From Bacteroidota bacterium (lineage in GTDB: Bacteria > Bacteroidota > Bacteroidia > Bacteroidales > DTGW01), in the NCBI GenBank assembly GCA_029550865.1, contig JAKPGM010000006.1:9373-73372 (forward strand): a stretch of 64,000 nucleotides of DNA, given 5' to 3'. The notes under the pieces are model-generated. The model saw nothing but the letters and a program-made list of their open reading frames with translations, was not told where the DNA came from and ran no database searches. The position numbers were made by a program, and so were the translations under genes. Below, piece after piece: positions 543 through 28,776 of the stretch. Position 1 is the first letter of the stretch; each line of letters opens with the position of its first letter.

Positions 543-1058
543 TTAACCTTTAAACACTTTTTCTATTGAAATTCCACGAACAGCAGCAATATGAGCAGGG
601 TCTCGTAATTCCATCAATGCCTTGATAGTTGCTTTTACAAGGTTATGAGGGTTTGAAGAACCTTTAGATTTGGCTAACACATCGTGTATTCCCACACTTT
701 CGAGTACGGCACGCATCGCACCCCCCGCCTTTACACCAGTACCACTGGAAGCAGGCTTAATAAATACTCTTGCTCCACCGTATTTGGCATATTGCTCGTG
801 TGGAATTGTTCCTTTGTAAATGGGAACTTTAACAAGATTTTTTTTAGCTTCTTCGATTCCTTTTGCAATAGCTGTCGTTACCTCATTGGCTTTTCCAAGA
901 CCATAACCAACGATTCCATTTTCATTTCCAACCACTACAATAGCGGAAAAGCTAAAGGCACGTCCCCCCTTCGTAACTTTTGTTACACGTTGAATACTTA
1001 CGAGACGATCTTTAAGTTCGAGATCGGTTGTTCTAATTTTCCGGATGCTTTCTGCCAT
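543..1058 (-). CDS. rpsE: 30S ribosomal protein uS5
   Basis: 171-aa ORF with [37 protein letters not shown], the uS5 core. spc-operon order fits. Confidence 0.97.
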
Positions 1059-1064
1059 AGTTTA

Positions 1065-1424
1065 TTAAAATTTTAAGCCACCTTCGCGAGCAGCATCTGC
1101 TAACATTTTTACTCTTCCATGATACAGATAACCGTTGCGGTCGAAAACCACTTCGGTAATCCCTTTAGCCAAACAAATTTCAGCAATTTTTTTCCCAACC
1201 AAACGGGCTTGTTCCATTTTATTGCCTTTTGCTACCTCGGCTATTTCTTTTTCGCGGGACCCAGCTGCAGCAAGCGTATGTCCAGCCAGATCATCAATGC
1301 ACTGAACATAAATGTGTTTATTGCTTCGAAAAACCGACATGCGTGGTTTTTGAGCTGTCCCGGTTATTTTCTTTCGTATTCTGTGTTTTATGCGAACTCT
1401 ACGTTCAATTTTTGTCAACGACAT
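1065..1424 (-). CDS. rplR: 50S ribosomal protein uL18
   Basis: 119-aa ORF with [31 protein letters not shown], typical uL18. Operon order fits. Confidence 0.97.
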
Positions 1425-1448
1425 GGTTTTTTCGTATTTTTATATTAT

Positions 1449-2003
1449 TTACTTACCAGCAGTCTTACCAGCCTTCTTCCGTACCTCTTCACCCACATAG
1501 CGAATACCTTTACCTTTAAAGGGTTCAGGTTTACGCAGCGAACGTATCTTGGCTGCTACCAATCCAAGCAACTGTTTGTCATGGCTTTTAAGGGTAATGA
1601 TAGGATTGGCACGCTTTTCGGTACGAGTTTCTACTTTTATTTCTTTAGGTAAAGCAAACAGAACTTCGTGCGAATATCCCAGACTCATTTCCAGATTTTG
1701 CCCTTTAGCTTCGGCACGATACCCTACCCCTACAAGCTCCTGTTCGATAGTAAACCCTTCAGAAACCCCTTTTACCATGTTAGCAATAAGCGCACGATAC
1801 AAACCGTGAAGCGCCTTATGCCGTTTTTGGTCGGTAGGGCGTGTTACTAAAATCTGCTGATTTTCGATAGTAACCTTAATATCCGGATCGACTTTTTGCT
1901 TAAGTTCTCCCAGAGGCCCTTTTACGGTAACTTCATTGGTTGAACTAATGTTCACCTCAACGCCTTTGGGTATTGCTATCGGTAATTTTCCTATTCGTGA
2001 CAT
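1449..2003 (-). CDS. rplF: 50S ribosomal protein uL6
   Basis: Track ORF 1449..2036. The canonical N-terminus MSRIGKLPIAIPKGVEV begins at the internal ATG (complement of 2001-2003), and the longer form would overlap the rpsH stop. Confidence 0.95.
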   Translation of the reverse strand: MSRIGKLPIAIPKGVEVNISSTNEVTVKGPLGELKQKVDPDIKVTIENQQILVTRPTDQKRHKALHGLYRALIANMVKGVSEGFTIEQELVGVGYRAEAKGQNLEMSLGYSHEVLFALPKEIKVETRTEKRANPIITLKSHDKQLLGLVAAKIRSLRKPEPFKGKGIRYVGEEVRKKAGKTAGK

Positions 2004-2020
2004 GGTTTGTCTCCTCCCGA

Positions 2021-2416
2021 TTAATAAACATAGCATATAACTTCGCCCCCGATATTTTTAGCGCGGGCTTCCTTGTCGGTCATAATTCCCTGGGATGTGG
2101 AAAGGATAGCGATACCCAATCCATTGAGTACCCGGGGTAGATGATCATGGTCTGCATATTTTCGCAGCCCAGGCTTGCTGACACGTTCTAAATGCTTGAT
2201 TGCAGGTTCTCGATCAACAGGACTGTACTTTAAAGCAATTTTTATGGTACCCTGAGGACCGTCTTCTACAAATTTATAATTTAAGATGTAGCCCTTTTCG
2301 TGGAGAACTTTGGTAATTTCCTTTTTCATCTTCGATGCAGGAACTTCCACGATTCTGTGCCGAGCTTTAATTGCATTTCTCAAACGGGTCAGATAATCTG
2401 ATATAGGATCTGTCAT
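2021..2416 (-). CDS. rpsH: 30S ribosomal protein uS8
   Basis: 131-aa [23 protein letters not shown]..., the uS8 N-terminus. Operon order fits. Confidence 0.97.
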
Positions 2417-2437
2417 GGTTTGCTACTATTTATAAGA

Positions 2438-2707
2438 TTACCAACTTGCTTTTTTAACTCCAGGAATGAGTCCTTTCGATGCCATTTCGCGGAATTGAAT
2501 ACGGCTGATACCGAATATCCGCATATAGCCACGAGGACGCCCTGTAATTTGACAGCGATTGCGCTGACGTATGGGATTAGAGTTCTTAGGCAACAACTGA
2601 AGCCCTACATAATCCCCTTCGGCTTTTAACTTTGCTCTTTTTTCTGCATACTTCTCGGCGAGTTTTTTTCGTTTTACCTCGCGAGCTTTCATTGATTCTT
2701 TAGCCAT
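2438..2707 (-). CDS. rpsN: 30S ribosomal protein uS14 (long form)
   Basis: 89-aa [23 protein letters not shown]...[41 protein letters not shown], a uS14 C-terminal signature. Confidence 0.96.
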
Positions 2708-2716
2708 ATCTATAAT

Positions 2717-3271
2717 TTACTTTTTTGTCGTTTTGAACGGAATACCAAATTCACGCAACAAGGCAAAAGCTTCCTCATCGGTACGGGCATTAGTAACAAA
2801 ACTTATTTCCATACCCATAATTTTCGTCACCTTGTCGATATCAATTTCAGGGAAAATGATCTGCTCCCTGATGCCGAGCGTATAGTTCCCACGTCCATCG
2901 AATTTGGCATTTACCCCTTTAAAATCGCGTATACGCGGCAAAGCAACATGGATGAGTCGTTCAAGAAATTCGTACATACGATCATTGCGCAGGGTTACTT
3001 TTACGCCAATCGGCATATTCTTACGCAACTTGAAATTAGAAATATCCTTCTTTGCGTACGTTAGCACTGCTTTTTGCCCCGTAATGGCTGTTAATTCACT
3101 GGCAGCCACTTCTATGAGTTTTTTATCGGACACAGCTGCACCTACCCCCTGGTTGATGCAAATCTTTTCCAAACGCGGTACCTGCATTACCGTGGTGTAA
3201 TTGAATTCTTTCATCAGGGCAGGTACAATTTCGTTTTTATATTTCAACTTTAGGTTTGGTATATACTTCAT
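2717..3271 (-). CDS. rplE: 50S ribosomal protein uL5
   Basis: 184-aa ORF with [21 protein letters not shown], typical uL5. Operon order fits. Confidence 0.97.
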
Positions 3272-3324
3272 TGCTCTTATATTTTCAGTTTACTATGCAA
3301 TATATCGCATAGATTTTATTTGCT

Positions 3325-3648
3325 TTAAGGTAAAACGGTTCCCGATTTTTTAGCGTACCGTACCAGTTTATTTTTTTCATTCAACTTACGACCAATTCGT
3401 GTTGGTTCATTGGTAGTAGGATCGACGACCTGCAAATTAGAAATATGGATTGGTGCTTCCATTTTAATAATTCCACCTTGGGGATGCTTTGCAGAAGGCT
3501 TAGTGTGTTTTGAAACAATATTGACTCCTTCTACAATTGCAGTCATCTTATCGCGGTTCACTTCAAGCACTCTACCGCGTTTTCCTTTATCATCGCCGGC
3601 ATTTACATAGACGATGTCGCCCTTTTTAATATGTAGTTTCTTTTGCAT
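3325..3648 (-). CDS. rplX: 50S ribosomal protein uL24
   Basis: 107-aa [33 protein letters not shown], a KOW motif of uL24. Confidence 0.96.
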
Positions 3649-3666
3649 GGTTGTACAGGTTAATAG

Positions 3667-4032
3667 TTATAACACCTCAGGAGCCAGCGAAACAATCTTC
3701 ATGTATTTATCGCGCAATTCACGGGCAACTGGCCCGAAAATACGAGTACCTCTTATTTCATCAGCGTTGTTAAGAAGCACTACGGCATTATCATCGAAGC
3801 GGATGTACGAACCATCGGGACGACGAATCTCCTTTTTGGTGCGTACCACCACAGCTTTACTTACAGCTCCCTTTTTTATATCACCCGAAGGTAATGCACT
3901 CTTAACTGTTACCACTACTTTATCACCGACTCGGGCATATCGACGACGTGTTCCGCCCAGTACCCGGATGCACAACACTTCTTTAGCACCGCTATTGTCG
4001 GCAACAACCATTCTTGATTCTTGCTGTATCAT
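3667..4032 (-). CDS. rplN: 50S ribosomal protein uL14
   Basis: 121-aa [30 protein letters not shown], a highly conserved uL14 N-terminus. Confidence 0.98.
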
Positions 4033-4034
4033 AG

Positions 4035-4298
4035 TTATTTAGCTTTCTCAATAATTTCAACAACTCTCCAACGTTTTAAACGAGACAGGGGGCGTGTTTC
4101 CATAATCCTTACCGTATCCCCTATTCCACACATGTTATTTTCATCGTGAGCATAAAATTTCGAAGTCTTGTTCACAAACTTGTGATACATCGGATGCATC
4201 ATTTTTCTTTTTACAGAAACGACAACAGTTTTTTGCATTTTATTGCTCACGACTGTACCAATTCGTTCTTTTCTTAAATTTCTCTCCATTGTCAGCAT
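4035..4298 (-). CDS. rpsQ: 30S ribosomal protein uS17
   Basis: 87-aa ORF with [21 protein letters not shown]. The start may instead be the 4th-codon Met. TAATG stop/start overlap with rpmC. Confidence 0.95.
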
Positions 4299-4507
4299 TA
4301 TTTATTATTGCCTGCAAGTTGCCTTTTTCTAAGCTCTGTCAGCATACGAGCTATATCACGACGGGTATGACGTATTTTCATAGGATTATCGAGCGGTGAT
4401 ATAGCATGATTAATTTTCAGCTTCGTTAGCATGAGTTTTTCCGCTTCGATTCTTTCTTGCAATTCCTTAGTTGTAAGCTCTCTTATTTCAGACGTTTTCA
4501 TTGTCAT
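4298..4507 (-). CDS. rpmC: 50S ribosomal protein uL29
   Basis: 69-aa [25 protein letters not shown], uL29 pattern. Confidence 0.95.
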
Positions 4508-4523
4508 GTTTTTTAGCTAATAT

Positions 4524-4952
4524 TTACCCGATGTTTTCGGCATAATCGCGCCGTACCACAAATTTGGTGGTCACAGGCAGCTTTTGCGCACCCAGTCGCA
4601 ATGCCTCTTTGGCTACATGATAGGGTACTCCATCTACCTCAATAATAATTCGCCCTGGTGTAATGGGAAATACAAAACCTTCGGGCGAACCTTTACCTTT
4701 ACCCATACGCACTTCGGCAGGTTTACGAGTAATAGGCTTATCGGGGAAAATTCGTATCCATATCTGTCCTTCACGTTTCATGTATCGACTCACAGCCTGG
4801 CGAGCAGCTTCAATCTGTCTACCCGTTATCCAGCAGCTTTCCTCCGACTTAATAGCAAACGAACCGAACGCTATGGTATGCCCTCGCTGGGCATTACCTT
4901 TCATACGTCCTTTTTGCTGTCTTCTATATTTTGTCTTTTTAGGCTGTAACAT
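4524..4952 (-). CDS. rplP: 50S ribosomal protein uL16
   Basis: 142-aa [22 protein letters not shown]..., the uL16 N-terminus. Confidence 0.97.
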
Positions 4953-4982
4953 GTTTATATATTTTGTCGTGTTACAATAAGA

Positions 4983-5684
4983 TTATTTTCTCTTTCTTCT
5001 TGGTTCTGCCTTAAACGACTTAGCACTTTTTAGAGCCACATTTGGTGAGAGATCACGCTTGCCATAAACCTCCCCATTACAAATCCATACTTTTACTCCA
5101 ATACGTCCGACCTTAGTATGAGCCTCGGCTAACGCATAATCAATATCAGCCCTAAAAGTGTGCAGGGGGATACGTCCTTCCTTAAGCATTTCGCTACGTG
5201 CCATTTCTGCGCCTCCAAGTCGTCCGGAAACGATAACTTTGATTCCTTCAGCACCGAGTCGCATAGTCGAAGCTATTGCCATTTTAATGGCTCGACGATA
5301 CGATATTCTCCCCTCAATTTGACGTGCAATATTGTTTGCCACTATGTTAGCATCCAATTCGGGACGTTTTACCTCGAAAATATTGATTTGTACTTCCTTA
5401 TTGGTAATTTTTTTCAATTCTTCTTTAAGCTTATCGACCTCCTGTCCTCCTTTACCGATAATTACACCCGGCCGGGCAGTATTTACAGTGATGGTAACAA
5501 GCTTAAGGGTACGTTCAATAATTATTTTCGAAATACTTGCCTTCGCTAAGCGAGCATTAAGGTACTCTCTTATCTTGGCATCCTCGATAAGCTTTTGTAC
5601 ATAATTTTTGCCTCCATACCAATTGGAATCCCAGCCCCGGATGATTCCTAAACGATTCGCTATCGGATTTACTTTTTGTCCCAT
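4983..5684 (-). CDS. rpsC: 30S ribosomal protein uS3
   Basis: 233-aa [27 protein letters not shown], the uS3 N-terminus with KH domain. Confidence 0.97.
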
Positions 5685-5688
5685 GGAA

Positions 5689-6111
5689 TTAATTGGTTAA
5701 ACTTTCTTCTTGTTTCTTAACAACTGAATCTAAAACAAGCGTTACATGGTTAGAACGCTTACGAATTCTATATGCACGTCCTTGCGGTGCAGGCCTAAGA
5801 CGTTTAAGGATTCGTCCCCCATCAACTTTAGCTTCCTTAATAAAAATATATGCATCGTCGAGACGAACACCTTCGTTTTTAGCTTGCCAATTAGCAATTG
5901 CCGAAAGTAATAATTTTTCAACAGGACGAGCGGCAGCTTTTTCCGAGAATTTTAAAATATCGAGAGCACAATTAACTTCCATCCCACGAATAAGATCAAT
6001 TACATACCTCATCTTACGTGGTGAGGTAGGATAATCGCGTAAAATGGCTACAACCTTTTGCTGCCTGGCCTCCTTTAAAGCTTCGGCCATTTGTTTCTTT
6101 CTAGCACCCAT
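5689..6111 (-). CDS. rplV: 50S ribosomal protein uL22
   Basis: 140-aa ORF with [17 protein letters not shown]...[29 protein letters not shown], typical uL22. Confidence 0.96.
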
Positions 6112-6136
6112 TGTGTAATATCAATTCAAATTTGAC

Positions 6137-6409
6137 TTACTGTTCTTTTCTATTTCCGCTATGTCCTCTGAATGTCCGTGTTGGAGCAAATTCTCCCAGT
6201 CTGTGTCCCACCATATTTTCGGTGATGTAAACGGGTATGAATTTATTGCCGTTGTGAACAGCAATGGTGTGACCAACAAAATCGGGTGAAATAACACTGG
6301 CACGTGCCCATGTTTTTATCACCGACTTTTTACCACTGGCATTCATAGCCAGCACTTTTTTTTCTAATTTATAATTAATATAAGGACCTTTTTTCAGCGA
6401 ACGGCTCAT
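6137..6409 (-). CDS. rpsS: 30S ribosomal protein uS19
   Basis: 90-aa [22 protein letters not shown]...[23 protein letters not shown], uS19 signature. Confidence 0.97.
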
Positions 6410-6428
6410 ATTATTCTATATAAAAATT

Positions 6429-7250
6429 TTACTTTCTGCGTTCAAGAATATATTTATTGGAAGCTTTGTTCTTCTTTCTGGTTTTGTACCCTTTAGCTGG
6501 GATACCTTTTCTGGAACGTGGGTGTCCACCGGAAGCTCTACCTTCGCCACCCCCCATCGGATGGTCAACAGGGTTCATAGCTACCCCACGAGTACGTGGA
6601 CGACGGCCCAACCAACGTTTTCTACCAGCCTTACCCAGCTTTTGATTGTTGTGATCGGGATTGGATACGGCACCTACTGTAGCACGGCAGGTAACCAATA
6701 TCATACGCGTTTCGCCTGAAGGCAATTTTACTACAGCGTACTTTCCTTCCCTTGAAACAAGCTGGGCATAAGATCCAGCACTACGGGCTAATGCTCCTCC
6801 CTGTCCTGGATATAACTCCACATTATGGATAATGGTACCAAGTGGAATATTAGCTAGTGGAAGTGTATTTCCGATTTCAGGAGCAACATTTTCGCCACTC
6901 TCTATCTTTTGACCTACTTTCAAGCCTTGCGGGGCAAGAATGTAGCTCTTTGTTCCATCGGGATAAACCACCAAGGCTATGTATGCTGTACGATTAGGAT
7001 CGTATTCAATGCTCTTTACCACGGCAGGCATTCCATCTTTCGTACGGGCAAAATCAATGATTCGATACATGCGCTTATGACCGCCTCCGCGATAACGCAT
7101 GGTCATTTTTCCTGTATTGTTTCTACCCCCTGAATCGTGTAGAAACACTAGCAATGACTTTTCTGGTTCGGTCTTTGTAATTTCCGAATGATCAACCAGA
7201 ATTTTATCTCGCTGTCCTGCTGTAACCGGTTTATACTTCTTTAAGCCCAT
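6429..7250 (-). CDS. rplB: 50S ribosomal protein uL2
   Basis: 273-aa [17 protein letters not shown]...[13 protein letters not shown], uL2 signature. Confidence 0.98.
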
Positions 7251-7259
7251 TGCTCAAAA

Positions 7260-7550
7260 TTATATATTGCTGTAAAAATCAATTTTTTCTCCTTCTGCTA
7301 CCGTTACGTAAGCTTTTTTGTAGGTATTCGTTCTTCCTTCGACAAACCCACGCTTGGTATAACGTGTTTTGCGTTTACCTCCAATAATAGCAGTATTCAC
7401 TGACGTTACGGTAACACCATACAATTCCTTTATGGCTTCTTTAATCTGGATTTTATTGGCTTTTTTGTGTACAATGAAGCCATAAGTATTTAGCTTTTCA
7501 CCTTGATTGGTGTGCTTTTCCGTAACTATGGGTTTTATAATTATTTCCAT
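7260..7550 (-). CDS. rplW: 50S ribosomal protein uL23
   Basis: 96-aa ORF with KPIVTEKHTNQ...ANKIQIKEAIKELYGV. S10-operon order fits. Confidence 0.95.
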   Translation of the reverse strand: MEIIIKPIVTEKHTNQGEKLNTYGFIVHKKANKIQIKEAIKELYGVTVTSVNTAIIGGKRKTRYTKRGFVEGRTNTYKKAYVTVAEGEKIDFYSNI

Positions 7551-7565
7551 AATCGCTTACCTTAA

Positions 7566-8189
7566 TTAATTTTTCCCCTGAAAATTTTCCAGTGCATTCT
7601 TTGTAAATACTAAAACATCAGCATTTAGTATTTCGTAAGTGTTTAATTCTGAATAAATTAACACCTTGCTATCCGGCAAATTTCGGGACGACAAATATAC
7701 ATTTTTATTTGGTTCGTTGACTACCAAAAGCATTTTTTTGTCATCGAGCTTAAGATTGTTTTTCAGGGATACAAATTGTTTGGTTTTAGGAACGTCAAAT
7801 GAAAAATCTTCTACCACAACAATACTGTTATCCTTTGCTTTATAGGTAAGGGCTGATTTACGAGCAAGTTCTTTTACCTTTTTATTAACCTTAAAATCGT
7901 AATCTCTGGGTCTAGGACCAAATACGCGCCCTCCACCGATGAATACGGGTGATTTAATATCACCGGCCCGTGCACCGCCCGTACCTTTCTGCCTTTTTAT
8001 TTTTCGGGTACTGTATGATACTTCCGAACGCTCTTTAGCCTTGTGAGTTCCCTGACGCTGATTTGCCAGGTACTGTTTCACATCGAGGTAAATAGCATGA
8101 TCATTCGGGTTGATACTAAATATCTCCTCGTTAAGTTTAACCGTTGTACCCGTTTTTTGGCCGTTTATGTTTAATACTTCGAGTTCCAT
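7566..8189 (-). CDS. rplD: 50S ribosomal protein uL4
   Basis: 207-aa ORF with [32 protein letters not shown], uL4 pattern. Confidence 0.96.
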
Positions 8190-8235
8190 TTTTTTACTAT
8201 TTCAATTTATCATGCAGAATGTCCATCGCGGTAAA

Positions 8236-8850
8236 TTATTTTTCTATTTTCAGGTATGAACCTACTGCGCCAGGTACAGCACCTTTGAGGAACAATAAGT
8301 TGCTTTCTGGTACGACCTTAACAACAACCAGGTTTTCGATGGTAACCGCTTTATTTCCGGTATGGCCTGCCATACGTTTACCTCTCCAGACGCGTGAGGG
8401 GAAAGAAGAAGCACCCATTGAACCAGGAGCGCGCAAGCGGTTATGCTGACCGTGCGTCTGACTTCCTACACCGGCAAATCCATGACGCTTTACTACACCC
8501 TGAAACCCTTTACCTTTAGATGTTCCACGAACATCCACATAATCATTAACATTAAAAATATTGACCGTAATTACGTCACCAGGATTAACATTTTCGAATC
8601 CATGAAATTCGGCCAATTTACGTTTTGGTGTTGTATTTGCCTTCGCAAAATGACCCAGCAAGGGCTTGGGGGTATTTTTTTCTTTTCGCTCATCAAATCC
8701 AAGCTGCACAGCCACATAACCGTCTTTTTCAACGGTTTTCACCTGTGTAACAACACAGGGACCTGCTTGTACAATAGTAACAGGTATATTTTTACCATCT
8801 TCAGTAAACAGGGACGTCATCCCCAACTTTTTACCAATTAGACCAGGCAT
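8236..8850 (-). CDS. rplC: 50S ribosomal protein uL3
   Basis: 204-aa [18 protein letters not shown]...[17 protein letters not shown], uL3 signature. Confidence 0.97.
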
Positions 8851-8869
8851 CGTTCGCGATTTTTATTTA

Positions 8870-9175
8870 TTATACTTTAATTTCTACTTCCACACCACTG
8901 GGTAGTTCGAGCTTCATCAGCGCATCAACCGTTTTAGGAGTGGAGCTGTAAATGTCTATGAGTCGCTTATAAGAAGCGAGTTCAAATTGTTCACGTGATT
9001 TTTTGTTAACGAAAGGCGACCGCAAAACCGTAAAGATACGCTTATGCGTAGGCAGTGGTATTGGCCCACTTACGACTGCGCCGGTAGCTTTCACAGTTTT
9101 TACAATCTTATCGGCCGATTTATCGACCAGATTATGATCGTACGACTTAAGCTTGATGCGAATTTTCTGGCTCAT
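8870..9175 (-). CDS. rpsJ: 30S ribosomal protein uS10
   Basis: 101-aa [28 protein letters not shown], uS10 pattern. Confidence 0.97.
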
Positions 9176-9191
9176 TGTATGGTGTAATTTT

Positions 9192-11300
9192 TTAGTTTAC
9201 AGTGGCTTTGCCTTTAATTTTTTCAAGTATATCCTTTTCAATAGCAGGTGGAACCTGTTGATAATGCGAGAATTCCATACTGCTAGTAGCACGACCCGAT
9301 GTTAGGGTTCGAAGTACTGTAACATAACCAAACTGTTCGGAAAGAGGCACTTTTGCGCGAACCACGCGTCCTCCGGCCTTCATTTCCATTCCTTCGATAG
9401 TACCACGACGCTTGTTCAAATCGCCTATGACATCCCCCATGTATTCCTCAGGGGTAACCACCTCGAGTTTCATAATGGGCTCAAGCAGGATGGGTTTGGC
9501 TTTAGCACAAGCCTCCTTAAATGCATTCTTAGCACATATTTCAAACGACAAAGAGTCGGAGTCGACGGGATGGTACGAACCATCAAGCAAAGTTACTTTG
9601 AGGCTATCCATGCTGTACCCTGCCAACACACCATTTGCCATAGCTTCACGAAATCCTTTTTCAACGGCAGGGATATATTCTTTGGGTACATTTCCACCCT
9701 TCACTTCGTTGATGAACTGCAAACCTGTAACACCGGGATCAGCAGGTTCGACACGTACCACAATGTCGGCATATTTACCACGACCACCCGTTTGCTTTTT
9801 AAACACCTCACGATGTTCAACCGGAATGGTAATAGCTTCCTTGTAAGCCACCTGAGGAGCCCCCTGGTTACATTCTACTTTGAATACACGGCGCAAACGA
9901 TCGAGGATAATTTCGAGATGAAGCTCGCCCATTCCGCTGATAATCGTTTGACCGGAGTCTTCGTCTATTTTTACCTTAAAGGTAGGATCTTCCTCAGCGA
10001 GCTTTGAGAGCGCCATGCCGAGTTTGTCGACATCGGCCTGAGTTTTGGGTTCCACAGCGACACCAATAACTGGTTCGGGGAAAGTCATTGATTCAAGCAC
10101 GATCGGATGTTTTTCATCGCATAGCGTATCGCCTGTACGAATATCTTTAAATCCAACGGCTGCACATATATCGCCTGCTTCGATGATATCCTTAGGATTT
10201 TGCTTATTGGCATGCATCTGGAACAAACGGGCGATACGTTCTTTTTTACCTGTACGGGTATTGAGTACGTATGAACCCGAAGTAATAGTTCCGGCATATA
10301 CGCGCAAGTAAGCCAGACGACCAACAAATGGGTCGGTCATAATCTTAAATGCCAATGCAGTAAGGGGCTCGTTTTCGTCGGGCTTACGCGTAACGATTTC
10401 ATTATTTTCGGGATTGGTACCCTGAATATCAGGCAAGTCGAGCGGGCTTGGTAAGTATGCTGCTACGGCATCGAGTAACTGTTGTACTCCCTTATTTTTA
10501 AAGGAAGCCCCACAAAGCATCGGAGTAATTTTCATTTCAATAGTAGCCTTACGAGCAGCCGCTTTTAGTTCTTCGACCGTGAGTGAATTTTTATCTTCGA
10601 AAAACTTTTCCAGCAAATTATCGTCGAGTTCGCAAATTGCTTCAAGAAGTTGATCGCGATAAGTATTAGCCGTTTCGCGCAAGTCTTCTGGGACATCAAC
10701 AATATGGAATCGTTCCCCTTTGGGGTCACTAGGATCGTAAATGTGAGCTTTGTTTTCAAACAAATCGACCACTCCTACAAATTTTTCTTCAGCTCCAATA
10801 GGAATCTGAAAAGGAATGGCATTAGCACCCAGACGATCACGAACTTGCTGAACTACTTCAAAAAAGTCGGCACCGGTACGGTCCATTTTGTTAACGAACC
10901 CAATTCGGGGCACATTATATTTGTTGGCCTGACGCCATACGGTTTCTGACTGAGGTTCAACACCACCAACAGCACAGAATAATGCAACAGCTCCATCGAG
11001 TACGCGCAATGAACGTTCTACTTCTACGGTAAAATCGACGTGCCCCGGAGTGTCGATGATGTTGATTTTATATTCTTGATTGTTGTATTTCCAGTAACAG
11101 GTAGTAGCAGCCGATGTGATAGTAATACCACGTTCCTGTTCCTGCACCATCCAGTCCATTGTGGCTGCCCCATCGTGTACCTCACCAATTTTATAATTTA
11201 CACCCGTGTAATATAGGATACGCTCGGTAGTAGTTGTTTTACCGGCGTCGATGTGAGCCATTATACCAATATTTCTGGTTAATCTAAGATCACGTGCCAT
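9192..11300 (-). CDS. fusA: Translation elongation factor G
   Basis: 702-aa ORF with [24 protein letters not shown] and DTPGHVDF GTPase motifs. It lies between rpsG and rpsJ. Confidence 0.98.
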
Positions 11301-22093: not shown

Positions 22094-23824
22094 ATGGAGA
22101 TGACGTTTCAATTGGCTTGGATAGATTATCTGGTAATGATAATCTATTTTGCATTTGTGTTAGGTATCGGATGGGCACTGAAGAAATTCATGAAAGGGGC
22201 CAATGCCTTTCTTGAAGCCGGTCGGTCGATGCCTGCGTGGGTTGCTGGATTAGCTTTCATTTCAACGAATCTGGGGGCATTAGAAGTGATGGGAATGGCA
22301 GGCAGTGGTGCCAAGTATGGCATGCTCACCACCCATTTTTATTGGGTTGGGGCAATACCGGCCATGGTTTTTCTTGCTCTATTTATGATGCCTTTTTATT
22401 ACGGATCGAAAGCCCGGTCGGTACCTGAATATTTAAAACTTAGGTACGACGAAAAAACACGCGGGCTGAATGCTATACTCTTTGCCGTAATGACTATACT
22501 CTCGTCGGGTATATCGATGTATGCCCTGGCTATTTTGATGGAAAAAGTGCTGGGATGGAATTTCCATATCAGCCTTATGCTTTCTGCTGTCATAGTATTG
22601 GCATACACCTACTTAGGCGGACTTTCATCGGCTATATACAACGAGGTATTGCAGTTTTTCATCATTGTCATAGGCTTACTGCCAGTAGTATTTTTGAGCT
22701 TGCATCATGTAGGCGGTTGGGCGGGCTTAAAAGAAAGCCTGGGAAATGTAGCTACCGCCAATGGCTTTGCGCCCGATGCTTACACCAGCATGTGGAAATA
22801 CACGGGAACAGCCACAGGCAATCCTCTTGGGGTTGAGTGGTATGGCATTCTGGCCGGTTTAGGATTTGTATTATCGTTCGGTTACTGGTGCACCAACTTC
22901 TTGATAGTACAGCGTGCCATGGCTGCCGAATCGACAGTTGCTGCCCGTAATACGCCACTCATTGGTGCTATCCCTAAAATGTTTGTTCCCTTCCTGATTA
23001 TTTTACCCGGTATGGTAGCTTTAGCGCTGATGAACGATCCATCGGCCAACTTTTCACTACCCAAAAATGAAGCAGGACAGCCCATTTACGACTATACCAT
23101 TATTGCTCTGCTGAAACAATATCTTCCATCGGGGGTACTTGGATTGGGTATCACAGCCCTATTGGCCTCGTTTATGTCGGGGATGGCAGGTAATATCTCT
23201 GCATTCAACACCGTATGGACCTATGATATCTATCAAAGCTACATTCGTCCTACAACAGAAGATAAAGAAGCGGATGAAAAACACTATCTGAAAGTCGGAC
23301 GCATGGCCACCATCTTTGGAGTATTGGTAAGTATTGCCGCTGCCTATCTGGCTAGCTTGTTTGGCAACATTATGGACTTCCTGCAAACAATTTTCTCCAT
23401 GATCAATGCTCCGCTATTTGCCGTAATTTTCCTGGGCATGTTCTGGAAACGGGCTACTGGTCATGCTGCATTTACGGGACTTTTAGCTGGTTTCTTTATT
23501 GCTTTGCTGCACCATGGATTAACTGCACCCGAAGGAGCTAACACGCTGGTTAAAGGTGGTTGGATTACCATCTTGCATGTTTACCCAGTAGAAATGGCAC
23601 AAAACTTCTGGACTGCCATTTTCGCATTCAGCACCAGTGCTATTGTTACCGTTGTTCTTTCTTTGCTCACACCTAAAGTAAAATCGGATGAAGAGCTGGT
23701 AGGACTGGTTTACTCGCTTACTCCCAAACTGAAAGAAATGGATGTACCCTGGTACAAACGTTCTTCTTCGCTGGCCATACTGGTACTTGTGCTGGTTACT
23801 ATTCTTACAATCATGTTCTGGTAA
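22094..23824 (+). CDS. Sodium:solute symporter family (SSF/SGLT-like) transporter
   Basis: 576-aa polytopic ORF with about 13-14 hydrophobic helices. The N-terminal pattern FLEAGRSMPAWVAGLAFISTNLGALEVMGMAG is typical of the SSF family. Confidence 0.85.
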   Translation: MEMTFQLAWIDYLVMIIYFAFVLGIGWALKKFMKGANAFLEAGRSMPAWVAGLAFISTNLGALEVMGMAGSGAKYGMLTTHFYWVGAIPAMVFLALFMMPFYYGSKARSVPEYLKLRYDEKTRGLNAILFAVMTILSSGISMYALAILMEKVLGWNFHISLMLSAVIVLAYTYLGGLSSAIYNEVLQFFIIVIGLLPVVFLSLHHVGGWAGLKESLGNVATANGFAPDAYTSMWKYTGTATGNPLGVEWYGILAGLGFVLSFGYWCTNFLIVQRAMAAESTVAARNTPLIGAIPKMFVPFLIILPGMVALALMNDPSANFSLPKNEAGQPIYDYTIIALLKQYLPSGVLGLGITALLASFMSGMAGNISAFNTVWTYDIYQSYIRPTTEDKEADEKHYLKVGRMATIFGVLVSIAAAYLASLFGNIMDFLQTIFSMINAPLFAVIFLGMFWKRATGHAAFTGLLAGFFIALLHHGLTAPEGANTLVKGGWITILHVYPVEMAQNFWTAIFAFSTSAIVTVVLSLLTPKVKSDEELVGLVYSLTPKLKEMDVPWYKRSSSLAILVLVLVTILTIMFW

Positions 23825-23842
23825 ATTAAAATATAAATTGCT

Positions 23843-24046
23843 ATGGGACTCGATATTAAATATCCAATTGGTTTAATGTTTACCCTAATGGGTATTGTAC
23901 TGACTATTTATGGGCTGGCTACCCTGTCGGATCCGACCATGTACCAAAAATCTTTTCAAATCAACATTAATCTCTGGTCGGGTATTGGGATGCTAATTTT
24001 TGGTGTGGTAATGCTGGCTCTTGTTAAAAAGAAAAAAACTGAATAA
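23843..24046 (+). CDS. Small two-helix membrane protein (possible symporter accessory subunit)
   Basis: 67-aa ORF starting 18 nt after the symporter stop, with two hydrophobic helices (IGLMFTLMGIVLTIYGL; SGIGMLIFGVVMLALV). A strong terminator follows. Confidence 0.55.
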   Translation: MGLDIKYPIGLMFTLMGIVLTIYGLATLSDPTMYQKSFQININLWSGIGMLIFGVVMLALVKKKKTE

Positions 24047-24069
24047 CGGCTTACCGTAAATACGATAGG

Positions 24070-24109
24070 ACAAAGGCCACGAAGTTAACTTCTGGCCTTT
24101 GTTTTTTTT
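24070..24109 (+). terminator. Rho-independent terminator of the regulator-symporter module
   Basis: Perfect 10-bp stem ACAAAGGCCA / TGGCCTTTGT (24070-24079 / 24093-24102) followed by a T8 run. Confidence 0.85.
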
Positions 24110-24277
24110 ACTATCCCAGTAGCACGTCTGAATCAACACTTCTGCAATCGCCAGATTCTCTTCTATTCCACGCAGGTACTATTTTTTCAAATGAACACCT
24201 TATATCAAAGATTTTTGTATTTTTAAAAATTGAAATGGGTTAGCTATAGCTTATGCATAAGCATGCATAAAAATCTA

Positions 24278-24385
24278 TGGATTATTTTCGGATAAAACGA
24301 GCAGGTATGGTAGTATTCATAATAAGGATGAAATATCATTCTCGCAATTACCTATATGTAAGTAACTCAAAACCTGCGTGTTCCA
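24278..24385. repeat. Direct repeat copy B (~108 nt), paired with copy A at 21144..21247
   Basis: See copy A. It has the same orientation and lies in the next intergenic region, downstream of the terminator and upstream of the 24477 promoter box. Confidence 0.7.
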
Positions 24386-24476
24386 CTAGTTTTTTAGAAA
24401 AATTTCTAAAATTTAAGAAATAAGCGATACAGAAACGTTCCCGGCACTTGAAAAGCATGAAAAAAATATTGCAAAG

Positions 24477-24484
24477 TATATTTG
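24477..24484 (+). promoter_or_regulatory. Candidate -7 box (TATATTTG) for the five-gene envelope operon
   Basis: TAtaTTTG lies 36 nt upstream of the first ATG (24521) of the downstream ORF. Confidence 0.45.
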
Positions 24485-24520
24485 AGTCTTAACCATGACG
24501 CAAAAAAACAAACTTTTAAT

Positions 24521-25408
24521 ATGCCTACACCAGTAATAACCCCAATAGCAATACTTTATAAATCCTTCCTCCTTATTTTTATAGCACTTTTTTTTCAATT
24601 TCAGGGAAAAAGCCAGAATCCTGACAATACTGTTCACACTCTTGAACAGAGTTACTTTAGTCATCTTTACAATTTTCAGTTTACTCGAGCATACAATGCG
24701 CTGAATTCTAACCTTCCCTCAGGCAACTATTATCTCTGGCGAATGTATTACCAATGGTGGATGCTACTCTCCACTAACGACAAGACATATTTATCCCAGT
24801 GTTTTGCCAACATAGTTCTCTACGAAACCAATCGCACGATGCCTGATTCTTTGAAAATCTATTTTGAAGCATTCAGACTCAGGTTAATGCTATTCAATCA
24901 TCAATACATCAAAGCCTATCAACAAGCTGTTAATCTGGCCGATAACTACAAGTCATATTTCCATCAGTTTTCGAACAGAGATGAACAACATCTAATGCAG
25001 GGCCTGATGAACTACTTAGGCGCCAAGGCACATCGAAAATATCCTTTACTATTTCGCAGTAAATCGTTTCAGTGCTTTTCCGATACGCTGGGGCTAACGT
25101 TGTTAAAACAATGTACTACCAGCCCCTCAATTTTTGTTCGAACAGAAGGGCTTTACTTTCTTGTTAAGATTTATCTCGAAATAGAAGAAGATTATAAACA
25201 AGCGTATGTATATTCAACACAATTAATATCTTTGTTCCCAGGTAACATAATATTCGGGTTACTTCATCAAAAAATTCTCACTTGCTTGCATAAGGAGAAT
25301 GAAGCAAAAATTTATCAAACCAGGCTTTTAGATGAGATTTCGAATAACAAAGAACTAACAGAAAGTCAGAAGAAATATTTAAAGCAAATGATTAACCCAA
25401 AAATTTGA
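24521..25408 (+). CDS. Hypothetical signal-anchored all-helical (TPR-like) protein, operon gene 1
   Basis: The track ORF starts at a TTG (24482). The first ATG at 24521 gives MPTPVITPIAILYKSFLLIFIALFFQFQGKSQ, a hydrophobic signal or anchor. The rest is Y/L/Q-rich and looks helical. I recognise no family. Confidence 0.7.
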   Translation: MPTPVITPIAILYKSFLLIFIALFFQFQGKSQNPDNTVHTLEQSYFSHLYNFQFTRAYNALNSNLPSGNYYLWRMYYQWWMLLSTNDKTYLSQCFANIVLYETNRTMPDSLKIYFEAFRLRLMLFNHQYIKAYQQAVNLADNYKSYFHQFSNRDEQHLMQGLMNYLGAKAHRKYPLLFRSKSFQCFSDTLGLTLLKQCTTSPSIFVRTEGLYFLVKIYLEIEEDYKQAYVYSTQLISLFPGNIIFGLLHQKILTCLHKENEAKIYQTRLLDEISNNKELTESQKKYLKQMINPKI

Positions 25409-25410
25409 TT

Positions 25411-26094
25411 ATGTGGTTATTAATGATGTGGATTTATTGGCTGGCACAACCTGCCAATAATATTTCATTTCAGTTGGAGTCGAAAACTCTATCGAATCAA
25501 AAGGTAGTAGTGATAAAAGCAGATATATTCTTCAAATACGATGAAGGGCGAATGATTACTCATTACACTTATCCTACTGAACTAATTTCTATTACAAACA
25601 ATAAAGGGGAAGCCTCGTTTTATGATCCCAAGTCGAATACAGTGGTATTTAAGAGAGGAATCTTTTTTGCAACCAGTAATGATAATATTTATCTTTTCTT
25701 AAGAGAGAGGTATAGTGATTTAGGACTTAAGGAAATGGGATATAAACTGGTCAGCCAGAAAAAGGACAAAGATTACATTGTTACCGAATGGCTGCCAGAG
25801 CGTGCCAATATAAAAGACAATGCTGAAAAAATTGTATTAGCACACCAGAACGATCTACCCGTATACATGGCCTTATATTCAAAAGGACGATGTGAGAAAA
25901 AAATCTATTATTCTGGCTATTCAATGTATGGCAGTTATTTCCTACCTGCTCGAATTGTCGAAATCACCTATGTAAAATCTGATTCGATTGTCCTAAAAAA
26001 AGAATATTCAAATTACAGGATTGGTATGAGTGCTCAAAGTCCCTATTTTGAGTTTACCATCCCGTCGAACGCCAAAATCATTACCCAACAATGA
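25411..26094 (+). CDS. Hypothetical exported protein, LolA-like by sequence pattern, operon gene 2
   Basis: The track ORF starts at TTG 25405, overlapping the gene-1 stop; an ATG follows at 25411. It has an N-terminal hydrophobic signal. The pattern FQLESKT...VVVIKADIFFKYDEGRMI...ASFYDPKSNTVV...FEFTIPSNAKII resembles LolA/LolB-fold lipoprotein-carrier proteins. This is inference only. Confidence 0.7.
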   Translation: MWLLMMWIYWLAQPANNISFQLESKTLSNQKVVVIKADIFFKYDEGRMITHYTYPTELISITNNKGEASFYDPKSNTVVFKRGIFFATSNDNIYLFLRERYSDLGLKEMGYKLVSQKKDKDYIVTEWLPERANIKDNAEKIVLAHQNDLPVYMALYSKGRCEKKIYYSGYSMYGSYFLPARIVEITYVKSDSIVLKKEYSNYRIGMSAQSPYFEFTIPSNAKIITQQ

Positions 26095-26516
26095 GAGTAT
26101 TATTGTTATTACTCGTAATATGCATGCAGGTGCAAGGACAACCTGTTTCCGATGCTCAACTCATTCTGAACAAACCAACCGAAGGTATTCGTGATGTTAC
26201 AAGAAAACCAGTATTTGGTTTTTCCAGGAGTACACACTGGTACCATCAATATAATCCTTTAAATCTCGGGGCAGCAAGTTTAATGTATCTGTACCAAAAA
26301 TTTGTTTCCCCACAAATATCGGCAACCTGTGGATTTTCGCCATCTTGCTCTGCCATGAGCAAAAATCTTATTGCCGAATTTGGCCTTGTAAAAGGTGTAT
26401 TTTGCTCAGCCGACCGTTTAACCCGTTGCAATAGAATTAGTTTTGCCGATCTTGAGCCTGATGAAATAAATCCGTCGGATGGGAAAGTTCACGAAGAAAC
26501 TTCGCGATACAAATGA
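26091..26516 (+). CDS. YidD-family (membrane protein insertion efficiency factor / hemolytic domain) paralog with signal peptide and N-terminal extension, operon gene 3
   Basis: 141-aa ORF with signal MRVLLLLLVICMQVQGQ. The core YQKFVSPQISATCGFSPSCSAMSKNLIAEFGLVKGVFCSADRLTRCN matches the YidD pattern YQ.hhSP....C+F.PoCS.Y...Ah..aG..+G......RIhRC. ATGA overlaps on both sides. Confidence 0.8.
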   Translation: MRVLLLLLVICMQVQGQPVSDAQLILNKPTEGIRDVTRKPVFGFSRSTHWYHQYNPLNLGAASLMYLYQKFVSPQISATCGFSPSCSAMSKNLIAEFGLVKGVFCSADRLTRCNRISFADLEPDEINPSDGKVHEETSRYK

Positions 26517-27376
26517 AGAGCAGTCGTTTACTAATATTGTTTTGCATCCTTGCCATACACATATCGGCCATTGCCCAGTTCGATTGTTCAATGGATTTAC
26601 GTTTGCTAAAGCATCTAATCGATTCAAAAAAAGTAAATGAAAGTCTGATCCTCTCCTCATTCATGCTGAAAGAGCAAAATTGTACTAGGCAAATCGATTC
26701 AGTAGTGTTTTTTCGTGGATATGCATATTATCAGCTTCAACAACTCGACAGCGCAACCAGCTACCTTTTAAAAGTACAAATGCCTGACAGCCTGTACAAC
26801 AAAGCACGTTTTTTTGCTTTAATTTCCTCTTTATACAACAACAGGGTTTCTTTATCCGATAGCATAGCCCAAACCATAAAAAACACTTCGCAGGCCATCA
26901 AAGATTTAAACAATCTCTGCCGGGCTGGAATTTCTCTCTATCAAGGTGATATTAAAAATTATCAAAAATTCGTAAAAGATTTAAACCCAAACAATTACCT
27001 TATTGGCAATGAAATTAATGGATTGGAAACCACAAGCAAAATGTTATTCCAGAAGCGCAAATCGCCAACAAAAGCTGCAATACTATCAACTTTTCTTCCC
27101 GGAAGTGGAAAATGGTATCTGGGCAAAAAAGGTCAGGCCATTACTTCGTTTCTTACTGTAGGAATATTAGCAAGCATAGCAACGGAAATCATTGTGAAAA
27201 AAGGATGGAACAACTTTTACTCTGTTTCAGCGCTTACCACCACTGCCATATTTTATGGTGGAAACATTTATGGAAGTTATTACCTGGGAAAATATCTCAA
27301 CAATCGAATAGATGACAAGAGTAAGCAGGACATTCAGTACTATCTGCATGTGGCTGTGCGTAATGTTTATCAATAA
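26513..27376 (+). CDS. Hypothetical helical-repeat protein with C-terminal PGSG-motif membrane domain, operon gene 4
   Basis: 287-aa ORF with a signal-like N-terminus (LLILFCILAIHISAIAQ) and a helical repeat region. C-terminus: LSTFLPGSGKWYLGKKGQAITSFLTVGILASIATEII plus a second hydrophobic helix. It is paralogous in architecture to gene 5. Confidence 0.75.
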   Translation: MKSSRLLILFCILAIHISAIAQFDCSMDLRLLKHLIDSKKVNESLILSSFMLKEQNCTRQIDSVVFFRGYAYYQLQQLDSATSYLLKVQMPDSLYNKARFFALISSLYNNRVSLSDSIAQTIKNTSQAIKDLNNLCRAGISLYQGDIKNYQKFVKDLNPNNYLIGNEINGLETTSKMLFQKRKSPTKAAILSTFLPGSGKWYLGKKGQAITSFLTVGILASIATEIIVKKGWNNFYSVSALTTTAIFYGGNIYGSYYLGKYLNNRIDDKSKQDIQYYLHVAVRNVYQ

Positions 27377-28166
27377 TCCAATAACCGCACAGGACTACGA
27401 ATGGCTGGTTGAGAAAGCTAAAGAATTATACAATCAGGGGCTTTTTGATGAGGCCACTATTACATGTGAGCGCTATTTGTATTTTTCGGACAACCCCCAA
27501 CTTAAACATTCTGCTTTATTTATAGAAGCCAAGGCATTTCAGCAAAAAGGAAACTACAGCTATTCTTCCAATATACTCCTATCCATCCCGCGAATCAATC
27601 TTGAAAAGCACACTAAATCGCTTATCGACTTCAATCTGGCATTGAATAGCTACATGGATGGATTTTACGATGAAGCACAGGTATATCTCGATAATTGCGA
27701 CACAACTGTAATGGATGATACTGAAAGGAGAAATTACGAGCTGTTAAAATTATTAAACCTTTGCTACACAGAGAGATGGCAAGAAGCTTCAGCCTTGGTA
27801 AAAAACTCGTCTTTTTTTTCGGATACATTAAAAAATGAGCTCATTACACTATTGAACAAACCGCCCAAATTGTTGAATGCCAAAAAGTTAGAATGGCTTA
27901 GCCGCTTCATCCCCGGTAGTGGACAAATAATGGCTGGGTATTGGGTAGAAGGCGTGTCAAGTTTTCTTCTCTGTTCAGGCTCATTAACCCTTGGTATATT
28001 TCTTTTTATTAACAGATACTACATTTCGGGGTATTCGCTTGGTGGAGGGCTATTGTATGCTTTTTATTACGGAGGATTAAGACGACTCAATGAAATTACG
28101 CAAGCTGAAAATCAAAACCGAAAAAATTTGTTTATCGTAGCTATCAAAGAGAAATTAAAAAACTAA
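27312..28166 (+). CDS. Hypothetical helical-repeat protein with C-terminal PGSG-motif membrane domain, operon gene 5
   Basis: 284-aa ORF overlapping gene 4 by 65 nt if it starts at 27312 (alternative Met codons at 27348 and 27363). TPR-like text (LFDEATITCERYLYF..., KAFQQKGNYSYS). C-terminus: LSRFIPGSGQIMAGYWVEGVSSFLLCSGSLTLGIFLFI. Confidence 0.75.
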   Translation: MTRVSRTFSTICMWLCVMFINNPITAQDYEWLVEKAKELYNQGLFDEATITCERYLYFSDNPQLKHSALFIEAKAFQQKGNYSYSSNILLSIPRINLEKHTKSLIDFNLALNSYMDGFYDEAQVYLDNCDTTVMDDTERRNYELLKLLNLCYTERWQEASALVKNSSFFSDTLKNELITLLNKPPKLLNAKKLEWLSRFIPGSGQIMAGYWVEGVSSFLLCSGSLTLGIFLFINRYYISGYSLGGGLLYAFYYGGLRRLNEITQAENQNRKNLFIVAIKEKLKN

Positions 28167-28220
28167 TCAACCGATTCTAAAAAAATAGAGTTTCCTCATA
28201 GGATTTCTTCGAAAGAAATG

Positions 28221-28246
28221 AAAAAGGGGGGAAATCCCCCCTTTTT
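28221..28246. terminator. Bidirectional intrinsic terminator
   Basis: AAAAAGGGGGG-AAAT-CCCCCCTTTTT is a perfect GC-rich hairpin flanked by an A-run and a T-run. It sits between the convergent operon end (28166) and the TM2 gene end (28249). Confidence 0.85.
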
Positions 28247-28248
28247 GT

Positions 28249-28659
28249 TTACATCCACATCAAGAATTTTTCATTGTTACAATACTTACTGATATCATTA
28301 CTTTCAACGAGCAACACAACAAAATCTACGAAGGGTACTATACCAAATATCCCCCCAAAGGTACAGAAGTAATAAAAGAACATGACACCTTTTGTGCCGA
28401 GATAATAACGATGTATAGCAATACCCCCAAGGAAGAAAGCAAGTACCGCAGCAACAATGGCATTTTTATCCGAAGCAACAAAGAAGGTATTAGCACCTGC
28501 CAGATTTAAAGCAGCTGGATTCTCGAGGAGATTTACCAGCTGAATCTCTGTTGCATTAGCAAAAGCCTGATTTAGCTGCGATTCGTTTAATGTGTAATTT
28601 GCATGTGCTCCAATGGCCATAGCAAATAACACTACACAAGTTAATAAGAGCTTTTTCAT
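28249..28659 (-). CDS. TM2 domain-containing membrane protein
   Basis: The track ORF extends to 28722. The likely start is MKKLLLTCVVLFAMAIGAHA (signal) at 28659. The C-terminal AAVLAFFLGGIAIHRYYLGTKGVMFFYYFCTFGGIFGIVPFVDFVVLL is the TM2 two-helix pattern. Confidence 0.75.
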   Translation of the reverse strand: MKKLLLTCVVLFAMAIGAHANYTLNESQLNQAFANATEIQLVNLLENPAALNLAGANTFFVASDKNAIVAAVLAFFLGGIAIHRYYLGTKGVMFFYYFCTFGGIFGIVPFVDFVVLLVESNDISKYCNNEKFLMWM

Positions 28660-28776
28660 ACGGTTAATGTTTTTAATTAAACATGATTCAAATATAACTT
28701 TTTCAAGAGAAAATACCAACAATCATGAAAAATTTATTACACTCTTCCAACTATACATCATAATGTAAAAAAACAC

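Follow-up and report, generated by a model that had tools for sequence, protein, structure and literature searches.

The described families that come closest to the genes dealt with here include YidD, TM2 and the LolA/LolB superfamily, to which LolA_like (PF17131), DUF4292, DUF1329 and RseB also belong. YidD is known as a small signal-less protein of about 70-100 amino acids encoded beside rnpA and yidC; in Escherichia coli it is thought to act on the side opposite to the periplasm, and the family has reportedly been linked to YidC-dependent insertion. For the TM2 family (PF05154; YozV/COG2314), the function of the domain is stated to be unknown in the papers that mention TM2 proteins (PMC3861447). 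The papers on LolA homologs of Bacteroidota describe an orphan LolA3 without a phenotype and no operon of the kind presented below (PMC11885536, PMC13103446). Here, we analyzed a locus within a 64,000-nucleotide (nt) stretch of a Bacteroidota genome, which is called the window in the following and on which all positions are numbered. The locus comprises five genes on the + strand, g1 to g5, and a convergent TM2 gene on the - strand. It brings together an exported YidD paralog (g3), a LolA-like protein (g2), two paralogous membrane-anchored proteins (g4 and g5), the TM2 protein, and a further exported protein (g1). It is near certain that these genes represent a real, conserved and envelope-directed module of Bacteroidota, which consists of five core genes (TM2, g2, YidD, g4 and g5) and the accessory gene g1. 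The module is apparently undescribed, whereby each of the domains is known and their combination is new.

The Gene Arrangement Recurs in Unrelated Genomic Contexts

The arrangement was followed through a census of 89 related loci, mostly from different species, whose open reading frames (ORFs) were classified with hidden Markov models built from the first loci. The order TM2-g2-(YidD)-g4-g5 dominates these loci, which have unrelated flanks, and every context of a YidD paralog that was examined contained the g2-YidD-g4-g5 block with a TM2 gene beside it and with differing surroundings. With dozens of unrelated genomic surroundings in which it is found again, the arrangement is far more than chance would produce. 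The comparison of gene neighborhoods across Bacteroidota, which the initial annotation had proposed as a check, thus showed recurrence and not a lack of conservation. A mere neighborhood of genes that have no functional relation is hardly credible, since at least 80 species with different flanks share the order, the junctions and the fusions. All-against-all clustering of the flanking ORFs gave only clade-level synteny and no further conserved neighbor. A species-level genome scan with the g4 motif (one genome per species) yielded at least 506 confirmed species. These belong mostly to the Bacteroidales, furthermore to the Marinifilaceae (including the cultured Ancylomarina), Prolixibacteraceae, Flavobacteriales and Chitinophagales, and include one Melioribacteraceae genome as well as one Poribacteria genome. 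Among the cultured carriers of the cluster is Ancylomarina euxinus M1P (L029).

The census changes the composition of the unit, which had been described as a five-gene operon with the TM2 gene as a mere neighbor. The TM2 gene or a variant small protein, here called “sm,” is present in 79 of the 89 loci, where it either precedes the other genes on their strand or follows them in convergent orientation, and most of the loci without either of them are cut by a contig end. The TM2 gene is therefore a core member of the module. Homologs of g1 occur only in L001, L002, L006, L012 and L068, at varying positions, as well as in a fusion with g5 in L052, so that g1 is an occasional accessory and not a core gene. 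In L011, L012, L089 and L091 “sm” stands in place of TM2. The module is present in two complete, adjacent copies in L052 (inverted; 985-4804 and 5325-8048) and in L068 (in tandem; 3729-6573 and 7181-10763), whereby the second copy of L068 sits after a divergent “sm” and not after a typical TM2 gene.

Neither Pfam nor NCBIfam, PADLOC or PHROGs assigned the genes to a pathway, and full-text literature searches returned nothing on the cluster, which agrees with the earlier statement that this is not recognized as a described system. A defense-system or phage origin was rejected: PADLOC gave one weak match (E 0.004, unknown function), and the PHROGs matches were confined to the TM2 domain (unknown-function families).

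Gene Junctions and Natural Fusions Tie the Core Genes Together

An ORF check of the window found the five + strand ORFs at the coordinates previously given. The initial annotation had also described ATGA or longer overlaps at all four junctions. This holds for the g2/g3 junction (26091-94) and the g3/g4 junction (26513-16), which are both ATGA start/stop overlaps, and for the g4/g5 junction with its overlap of 65 nt (27312..27376, + strand), but not for the g1/g2 junction (25405-08), which reads TTGA and forms an overlap with g1 when TTG 25405 instead of ATG 25411 is taken as the start of g2. The same-strand stop/start overlaps are kept in relatives, as would be expected for translationally coupled genes. 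Across the loci, the median distance is -4 nt for g2/YidD (n=52), -4 nt for YidD/g4 (n=52) and -65 nt for g4/g5 (n=84). The g4/g5 overlap is always out of frame and conserved throughout the phylum, encodes the C-terminal tail of g4 together with the signal peptide of g5, and is found in 83 of 84 loci with a length of 47-107 nt (median 65). Inside the overlap, sequence conservation extends to the tail of g4 (..H(I/V)P(L/I)R..) as well as to the signal peptide of g5 (..IFLC..). Because both reading frames are conserved, the overlap is a true dual-coding stretch, and overlaps that are so long and so widely retained are unusual. One protein from a search of representatives (P0179, 512 amino acids (aa)) resembles a g4-g5 fusion with two matched stretches; it was not counted as a fusion, since with an out-of-frame overlap a single-base indel or a sequencing error could yield such a product.

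Fusions of YidD with g4 were found in L010/P0039, L019, L022, L042, L066, L071 and L076 as well as in P0158, P0164, P0233, P0262 and P0254. In these fusions, only the N-terminal YidD part bears a signal peptide and the g4 part has none of its own, which argues that YidD and g4 reside on the same, periplasmic side of the membrane. In L052, g5 is fused to g1. As g1 is otherwise exported on its own, the C-terminus of g5 should be periplasmic, and g5 should thus have an even number of membrane crossings. Two matches from hhalign comparisons were disregarded in this context: the one between g1 and g5 (100%), because the g5 alignment includes the g5-g1 fusion of L052, and the one between YidD and g4 (80%), because it covers only the signal peptides.

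All Module Products Carry Predicted Export Signals

The claim that every product has an N-terminal signal or anchor was borne out, as hydrophobic signal-like N-termini were found in all of them. In each of the six families, nearly every member begins with Lys or Arg residues and a hydrophobic stretch, mostly followed by a small residue and then Gln, and thus resembles Sec-type signals. In Bacteroidota, substrates of signal peptidase I are said to have typically Gln at position +1 (the “Q-rule”). A lipobox is essentially missing across the six families. Because no ATPase, enzyme, regulator or cytoplasmic domain is encoded in the module, a role as periplasm-side scaffold or holdase is suggested. 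From this anatomy, we consider an inner-membrane-anchored and periplasm-facing scaffold or chaperone (holdase) complex for hydrophobic or lipidated cargo to be a tenable reading, although its chance of being right is somewhat less than even.

g3 Encodes an Exported Paralog of YidD

The g3 gene (26091..26516, + strand) encodes an exported YidD paralog of 141 aa, as had been proposed from its sequence. It exceeds the cut-offs of both YidD profiles (PF01809, 54.8 bits vs. 27; TIGR00278, 50.5 bits vs. 40) and is composed of a signal peptide, an extension of about 40 aa, the YidD core with three conserved cysteines, an invariant DRLxRCN motif, and a C-terminal tail. When g3 was aligned with 21 other copies from the clusters and one canonical YidD, the canonical core and the three cysteines fell into the same columns. 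Among 58 unfused g3 paralogs, C80 is conserved in 57, C86 in 56 and C113 in 52, D108, R109 and R112 are invariant, and 57 have a signal-like N-terminus. A word-indexed search with the YidD paralog returned only 14 matches.

In common with YidD of rnpA-yidD-yidC operons, g3 keeps the YQxxxS...CxFxPSCS...RC core with its three cysteines. In contrast to canonical YidD, it has a cleavable-type signal peptide, the N-terminal extension of about 40 aa and the C-terminal tail, shows DRLxRCN where the canonical protein ends with RxxxC(H/G)P, is repeatedly fused to g4 and then degenerates, and is predicted to be located on the periplasmic side. Thus, with its length, its signal-like N-terminus and without rnpA or yidC as a neighbor, g3 is not the small signal-less protein of the known operons. 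L006 contains a canonical YidD of 73 aa (6698-6916) that adjoins rnpA at a distance of 5 kb from the cluster copy. As both coexist in this locus, g3 is a paralog and not the housekeeping YidD.

In rumen Bacteroidales the fused YidD decays stepwise, which can be followed at the N-termini of the g4 ORFs from L043, L047, L054, L055, L059 and L061-L084. In a first step the cysteines are lost (L055, L066, P0045), and in a second step the N-terminal half is gone, so that the remnant G(I/L)LGLPDRIMSSSRIGR alone follows directly after the signal peptide (L061-L084). This surviving remnant is the invariant DRLxRCNRI helix, which may be the element that contacts g4.

g2 Is Predicted to Adopt a LolA-Like Fold

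The g2 gene (25411..26094, + strand) encodes an exported beta-rich protein of 227 aa without a lipobox, which belongs to the LolA superfamily according to the following comparisons. The protein of the window stays below every Pfam cut-off (DUF4292, E 0.027), whereas among 50 members of the g2 family matches to the LolA clan were obtained with PF17131 (LolA_like) in 22 (best 1.8e-5) and with DUF4292 in nine. In a Foldseek search with an AlphaFold2 (AF2) model of g2, which was built on an alignment of eight sequences, the top 20 matches were all structures of the LolA superfamily, with 3bk5 as the best one (E 1.4e-8, TM-score 0.54); other matches included 4z48, 3buu, LolA3 from Porphyromonas gingivalis (9tp6), LolA, LolB and RseB (RseB at E ~3e-5). 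The model thus supports an open antiparallel beta half-barrel as the fold of g2, in line with the LolA-like character that had been assigned to it. On the sequence level, a relation to the solved structures of LolA, LolB and LolA3 was undetectable, with 2w7q as the best relevant match (E 1.1). An identification of g2 with the published orphan LolA3 was rejected, since the fold is similar but a sequence relation is undetectable and the LolA3 papers describe no such operon. Like LolA, g2 has a signal of the signal peptidase I type in addition to the predicted half-barrel; unlike the members of the LolA/LolB superfamily, it has no LolCDE or LolB partner and is always encoded together with YidD, g4, g5 and TM2.

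A LolA-like subunit raises the idea of a Lol-independent route on which g2, as the carrier, would bring lipoproteins from the inner toward the outer membrane; this corresponds to the “lipoprotein handling machine” of the initial annotation. Such a route would fit the observation that Flavobacterium johnsoniae survives without all of its LolA and LolB homologs and places its surface lipoproteins correctly, from which it follows that another lipoprotein route must exist (PMC11885536). A similar conclusion was reached for P. gingivalis (PMC13103446). However, the cluster and its surroundings contain neither an extraction motor, such as an ATPase or an ABC transporter like LolCDE, nor a receptor for the outer membrane; as for the partners of the Lol pathway, the examined loci have no conserved ABC transporter or lipoprotein within or next to the cluster. 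Furthermore, no component of the module is itself a lipoprotein, a general route is hard to reconcile with the patchy distribution, and the missing sequence relation of g2 to LolA, LolB and LolA3 speaks against it as well. We therefore regard this route as unlikely, and the lipoprotein handling machine as originally worded, with neither LolCDE, LolB nor an ATPase, as a conjecture.

The RseB structures among the g2 matches could also point to an envelope-stress or lipid sensor of the RseB/RseA type, in which g2 would sense mislocalized lipid or lipopolysaccharide and shift the state of the membrane hairpin proteins. It would be consistent with this that the remaining products are small and membrane-bound and possess periplasmic interaction domains. 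However, no sigma factor, anti-sigma factor, kinase or protease is linked to the module, a gene resembling extracytoplasmic function (ECF) sigma factors occurs in only five related loci, and cytoplasmic loops of ~4-8 residues leave no evident output domain. A sensor of this kind is very unlikely.

g4, g5, and TM2 Form the Predicted Membrane Part of the Module

The g4 gene (26513..27376, + strand) encodes a protein with a signal peptide and a periplasmic domain resembling tetratricopeptide repeats (TPR), which is followed by a membrane module. The latter consists of the motif KRKSP..PGSGKxYxG, one clear transmembrane helix with a conserved Glu, and the motif FYxGNIYGS. The g5 gene (27312..28166, + strand) encodes a paralog with the same architecture (hhalign 99.5%, E 7e-23, full length), whereby the glycine-rich motif reads FLPGSGKWYLG in g4 and FIPGSGQIMAG in g5. 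Among 85 g4 sequences, P196, G197 and G199 are present in all 85, K200 in 82, and Glu225 in 74, with an Asp in four more. The FYxGNIYGS motif is also invariant in g4 matches that were found independently of the motif-selected census. In the model of a natural fusion (P0039), the g4 part shows nine short TPR-like helices with predicted local distance difference test (pLDDT) values of 90-98, followed by the membrane module. The periplasmic domain of g4 is thus predicted to consist of stacked helix-turn-helix repeats, and the view of g4 and g5 as paralogous helical-repeat proteins with C-terminal membrane modules has gained support. According to hydropathy, only loops of ~4-8 residues of the membrane proteins are exposed to the cytoplasm.

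The g4/g5 family has no name. An exhaustive search with the g4 profile gave 6,509 clusters at 50% identity (E <= 1e-3), 1,107 of them at E <= 1e-30, and no Pfam model matched the family above its own cut-off; no precomputed Pfam domain describes it. Pfam TPR models match five of 24 g4-family members, and the best profile match in the PDB (E 4.8e-4) is an unnamed lipoprotein. With DUF5683 (PF18935), g4 shares PGxG(Q/K)xY at the start of the membrane module, and five of the 24 members match this model (best E 1.4e-4), but these matches are below the cut-off and cover ~24 profile positions, leaving the N-terminal TPR domain and the FYxGNIYGS helix outside; the g4 protein of the window itself reaches 12.9 bits (E 0.11) against a cut-off of 26.7. 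In L057, a metagenome-assembled genome of Rikenella microfusus, a g4 homolog (4914-5765) stands alone, without any other module gene within 5 kb to either side, which is the only such case among the loci with full flanks.

Membrane-tethered periplasmic TPR-like domains for protein-protein docking are also known from YfgM-PpiD, BamD and YbgF/CpoB, which are among the weak matches of g4. In contrast to these, g4 and g5 show no significant similarity to any of them and are anchored by a C-terminal multi-helix module with invariant motifs of its own. By analogy to YfgM-PpiD, the module might be an accessory of the Sec/YidC translocon on the periplasmic side, in which the TPR proteins and a trans-side YidD would aid folding or insertion. 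The YidD family is said to be tied to YidC-dependent insertion, the plan of g4 is that of YfgM, whose structure (8zht_B) is among the Foldseek matches with a target-normalized TM-score of 0.67 and an E of 0.12, and all parts face the periplasm. Nevertheless, this structural match lacks significance, the module is not linked to secY, yidC or ppiD genes, the LolA-like protein would be left without an explanation, and the YidD core is dispensable in many lineages. A translocon accessory is therefore improbable in our judgment.

The TM2 gene (28249..28659, - strand), which converges on the + strand genes, encodes a protein of 136 aa with a signal peptide, a periplasmic segment of ~45 aa, and a two-helix TM2 hairpin (GGIAIHRYYLGT...VPFVD). 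It matches PF05154 with 47 bits, above the cut-off of 27.9, at profile positions 2-51 of 51. The metazoan TM2D1-3/Almondex proteins likewise combine a signal peptide with an extracytoplasmic N-terminal segment and a two-helix hairpin (PMC8714088 for the metazoan family), while in contrast to the TM2 family in general, the protein has a fixed set of operon partners here. The similarity of g4 to PF05154 stays below the cut-off (21.6 bits vs. 27.9; hhalign probability 48%, E 1.8e-4, one helix only), and for g5 the hhalign probability is 6%.

The conserved polar or charged residues in or near the membrane helices, namely Glu225 and Lys200 of g4 and the HR and VD motifs of TM2, may alternatively suggest that TM2, g4 and g5 constitute an ion-conducting hairpin complex that uses the proton-motive force in the manner of ExbBD, TolQR or MotAB. 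As no ATPase is encoded, the proton-motive force would be the only energy source in reach. However, this idea rests purely on residue conservation, and there is neither homology to any stator family nor a partner resembling TonB, TolA or a peptidoglycan-binding protein, so that we give it very little probability.

g1, Boundaries, and Flanking Regions

The g1 gene (24521..25408, + strand) encodes an exported protein of 295 aa, which has no Pfam match and is, judged from its sequence, probably all-helical. Its ORF opens at TTG 24482, but since this codon falls within the promoter box at 24477-84, ATG 24521 is the most likely start. This box (TATATTTG, 24477..24484, + strand) is of the Bacteroidota -7 type, lies 37 nt upstream of the likely g1 start, and has no clear -33 element nearby. 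It is thus present as described in the initial annotation, but as promoter evidence a single match is weak, because the window contains 95 matches to TANNTTTG vs. 71 expected. A separate -7 box TATATTTG (28689..28696, - strand) precedes the ATG of the TM2 gene by ~29 nt and is identical to the one before g1. The identical boxes may reflect a co-regulation of the two convergent units.

Terminators are located on both sides of the unit. On the right, a perfect G/C hairpin with an 11-bp stem and six G-C pairs (AAAAAGGGGGGAAATCCCCCCTTTTT, 28221..28246) has T runs on both strands and scores as an intrinsic terminator in either direction, which confirms the strong bidirectional terminator noted before; it serves both the operon and the convergent TM2 gene. 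On the left, an inverted repeat (10/10 complementary; ACAAAGGCCA...TGGCCTTTGT followed by a T run; 24070..24112, + strand) forms the terminator of an operon for a sodium:solute symporter (SSF) and marks the boundary of the unit. This upstream operon (22094-24046) comprises the SSF gene and then a gene for a two-helix membrane protein of 67 aa, a pair that is probably a transporter with a small subunit, is kept in L001 (2415-4366), and is set apart from the module by the terminator. Between the left terminator and the promoter box lies an AT-rich spacer of 365 nt (24113-24476), which is devoid of credible ORFs, Rfam matches and meaningful repeats. A search for RNA elements in this spacer and around the terminator gave only sub-threshold terminator look-alikes. 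An ATGCAT-rich stretch within the spacer (TATGCATAAGCATGCATA, ~24253-24270) could be a regulator site. The G+C content of the two 2-kb bins at 24001-28000 is 0.347 and 0.386, compared to ~0.40-0.45 in most of the window.

A search of sequencing runs revealed near-identical sequences to 24477-28300 in metagenomes from activated sludge, hot springs, microbial mats and anaerobic digesters. According to these matches, the host would belong to a Bacteroidales lineage that has not been cultured and inhabits engineered and thermal environments.

Proposed Working of the Module and Its Significance

For the scaffold or holdase complex that we favor, the following working would be conceivable. Each product would leave the cytoplasm via Sec, and signal peptidase I would remove its signal peptide. 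TM2, g4 and g5 would constitute a hetero-oligomeric platform in the inner membrane, with short loops alone pointing toward the cytoplasm. The TPR arm of g4 would hold the YidD-like module via the DRLxRCNRI helix, whereas the periplasmic C-terminus of g5 would recruit g1. g2 would bind a hydrophobic moiety, which could be the acyl chains of a lipid or lipoprotein or else a hydrophobic protein segment, and the complex would thus serve as a periplasm-side scaffold or holdase for cargo that leaves or enters the inner membrane. Owing to the tight gene junctions, the subunits would be made in a constant ratio. We infer the formation of a complex, the docking of YidD on the TPR arm and the nature of the cargo, whereby the docking has its sole support in the G(I/L)LGLPDRIMSSSRIGR remnant at the g4 N-terminus of the rumen lineages.

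Several points weigh against the scaffold or holdase complex. The Cys-bearing half of YidD is gone in many lineages, so that its chemistry cannot be essential to the module, and the YidD part of the P0039 fusion model is of low confidence, which leaves the docking without structural support. The all-beta AF2 model of g2 has a low pLDDT of 56. The Foldseek matches of g4 are all TPR proteins and generic, none of them being better than E 0.04, and the topology of the membrane modules of g4 and g5 is based on hydropathy and a single fusion. As the census loci were selected via FYxGNIYGS, co-occurrence is conditional on g4, and the invariance of this motif within the census follows from the selection. 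The patchy distribution rules out a universal essential pathway, and the sole metatranscriptome run that was found contains no part of the locus.

Going one step further, the module might be a new envelope-biogenesis machine, in which a LolA-like carrier would work together with TM2, a trans-side YidD and two TM2-like TPR proteins, with the missing Lol-independent route for lipids or lipoproteins as a candidate role. We consider this proposal doubtful. If it is true, YidD and the TM2 domain would both be placed in a functional context for the first time, the latter including the Alzheimer-linked TM2D3 as well as the bacterial proteins. Nearly all bacteria possess YidD, the mechanism of which is unknown, and TM2 proteins occur from bacteria to humans, whereby TM2D3 is linked to Notch signaling and Alzheimer risk. 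With both of them in one fixed and fusion-linked module, each gains defined partners that can be tested. The g4/g5 proteins add a large unnamed family with thousands of sequence clusters and no Pfam model. In Bacteroidota, the placement of lipoproteins and the building of the outer membrane proceed partly by unknown routes, and a module with a LolA-like subunit would be a reasonable place to look for them.

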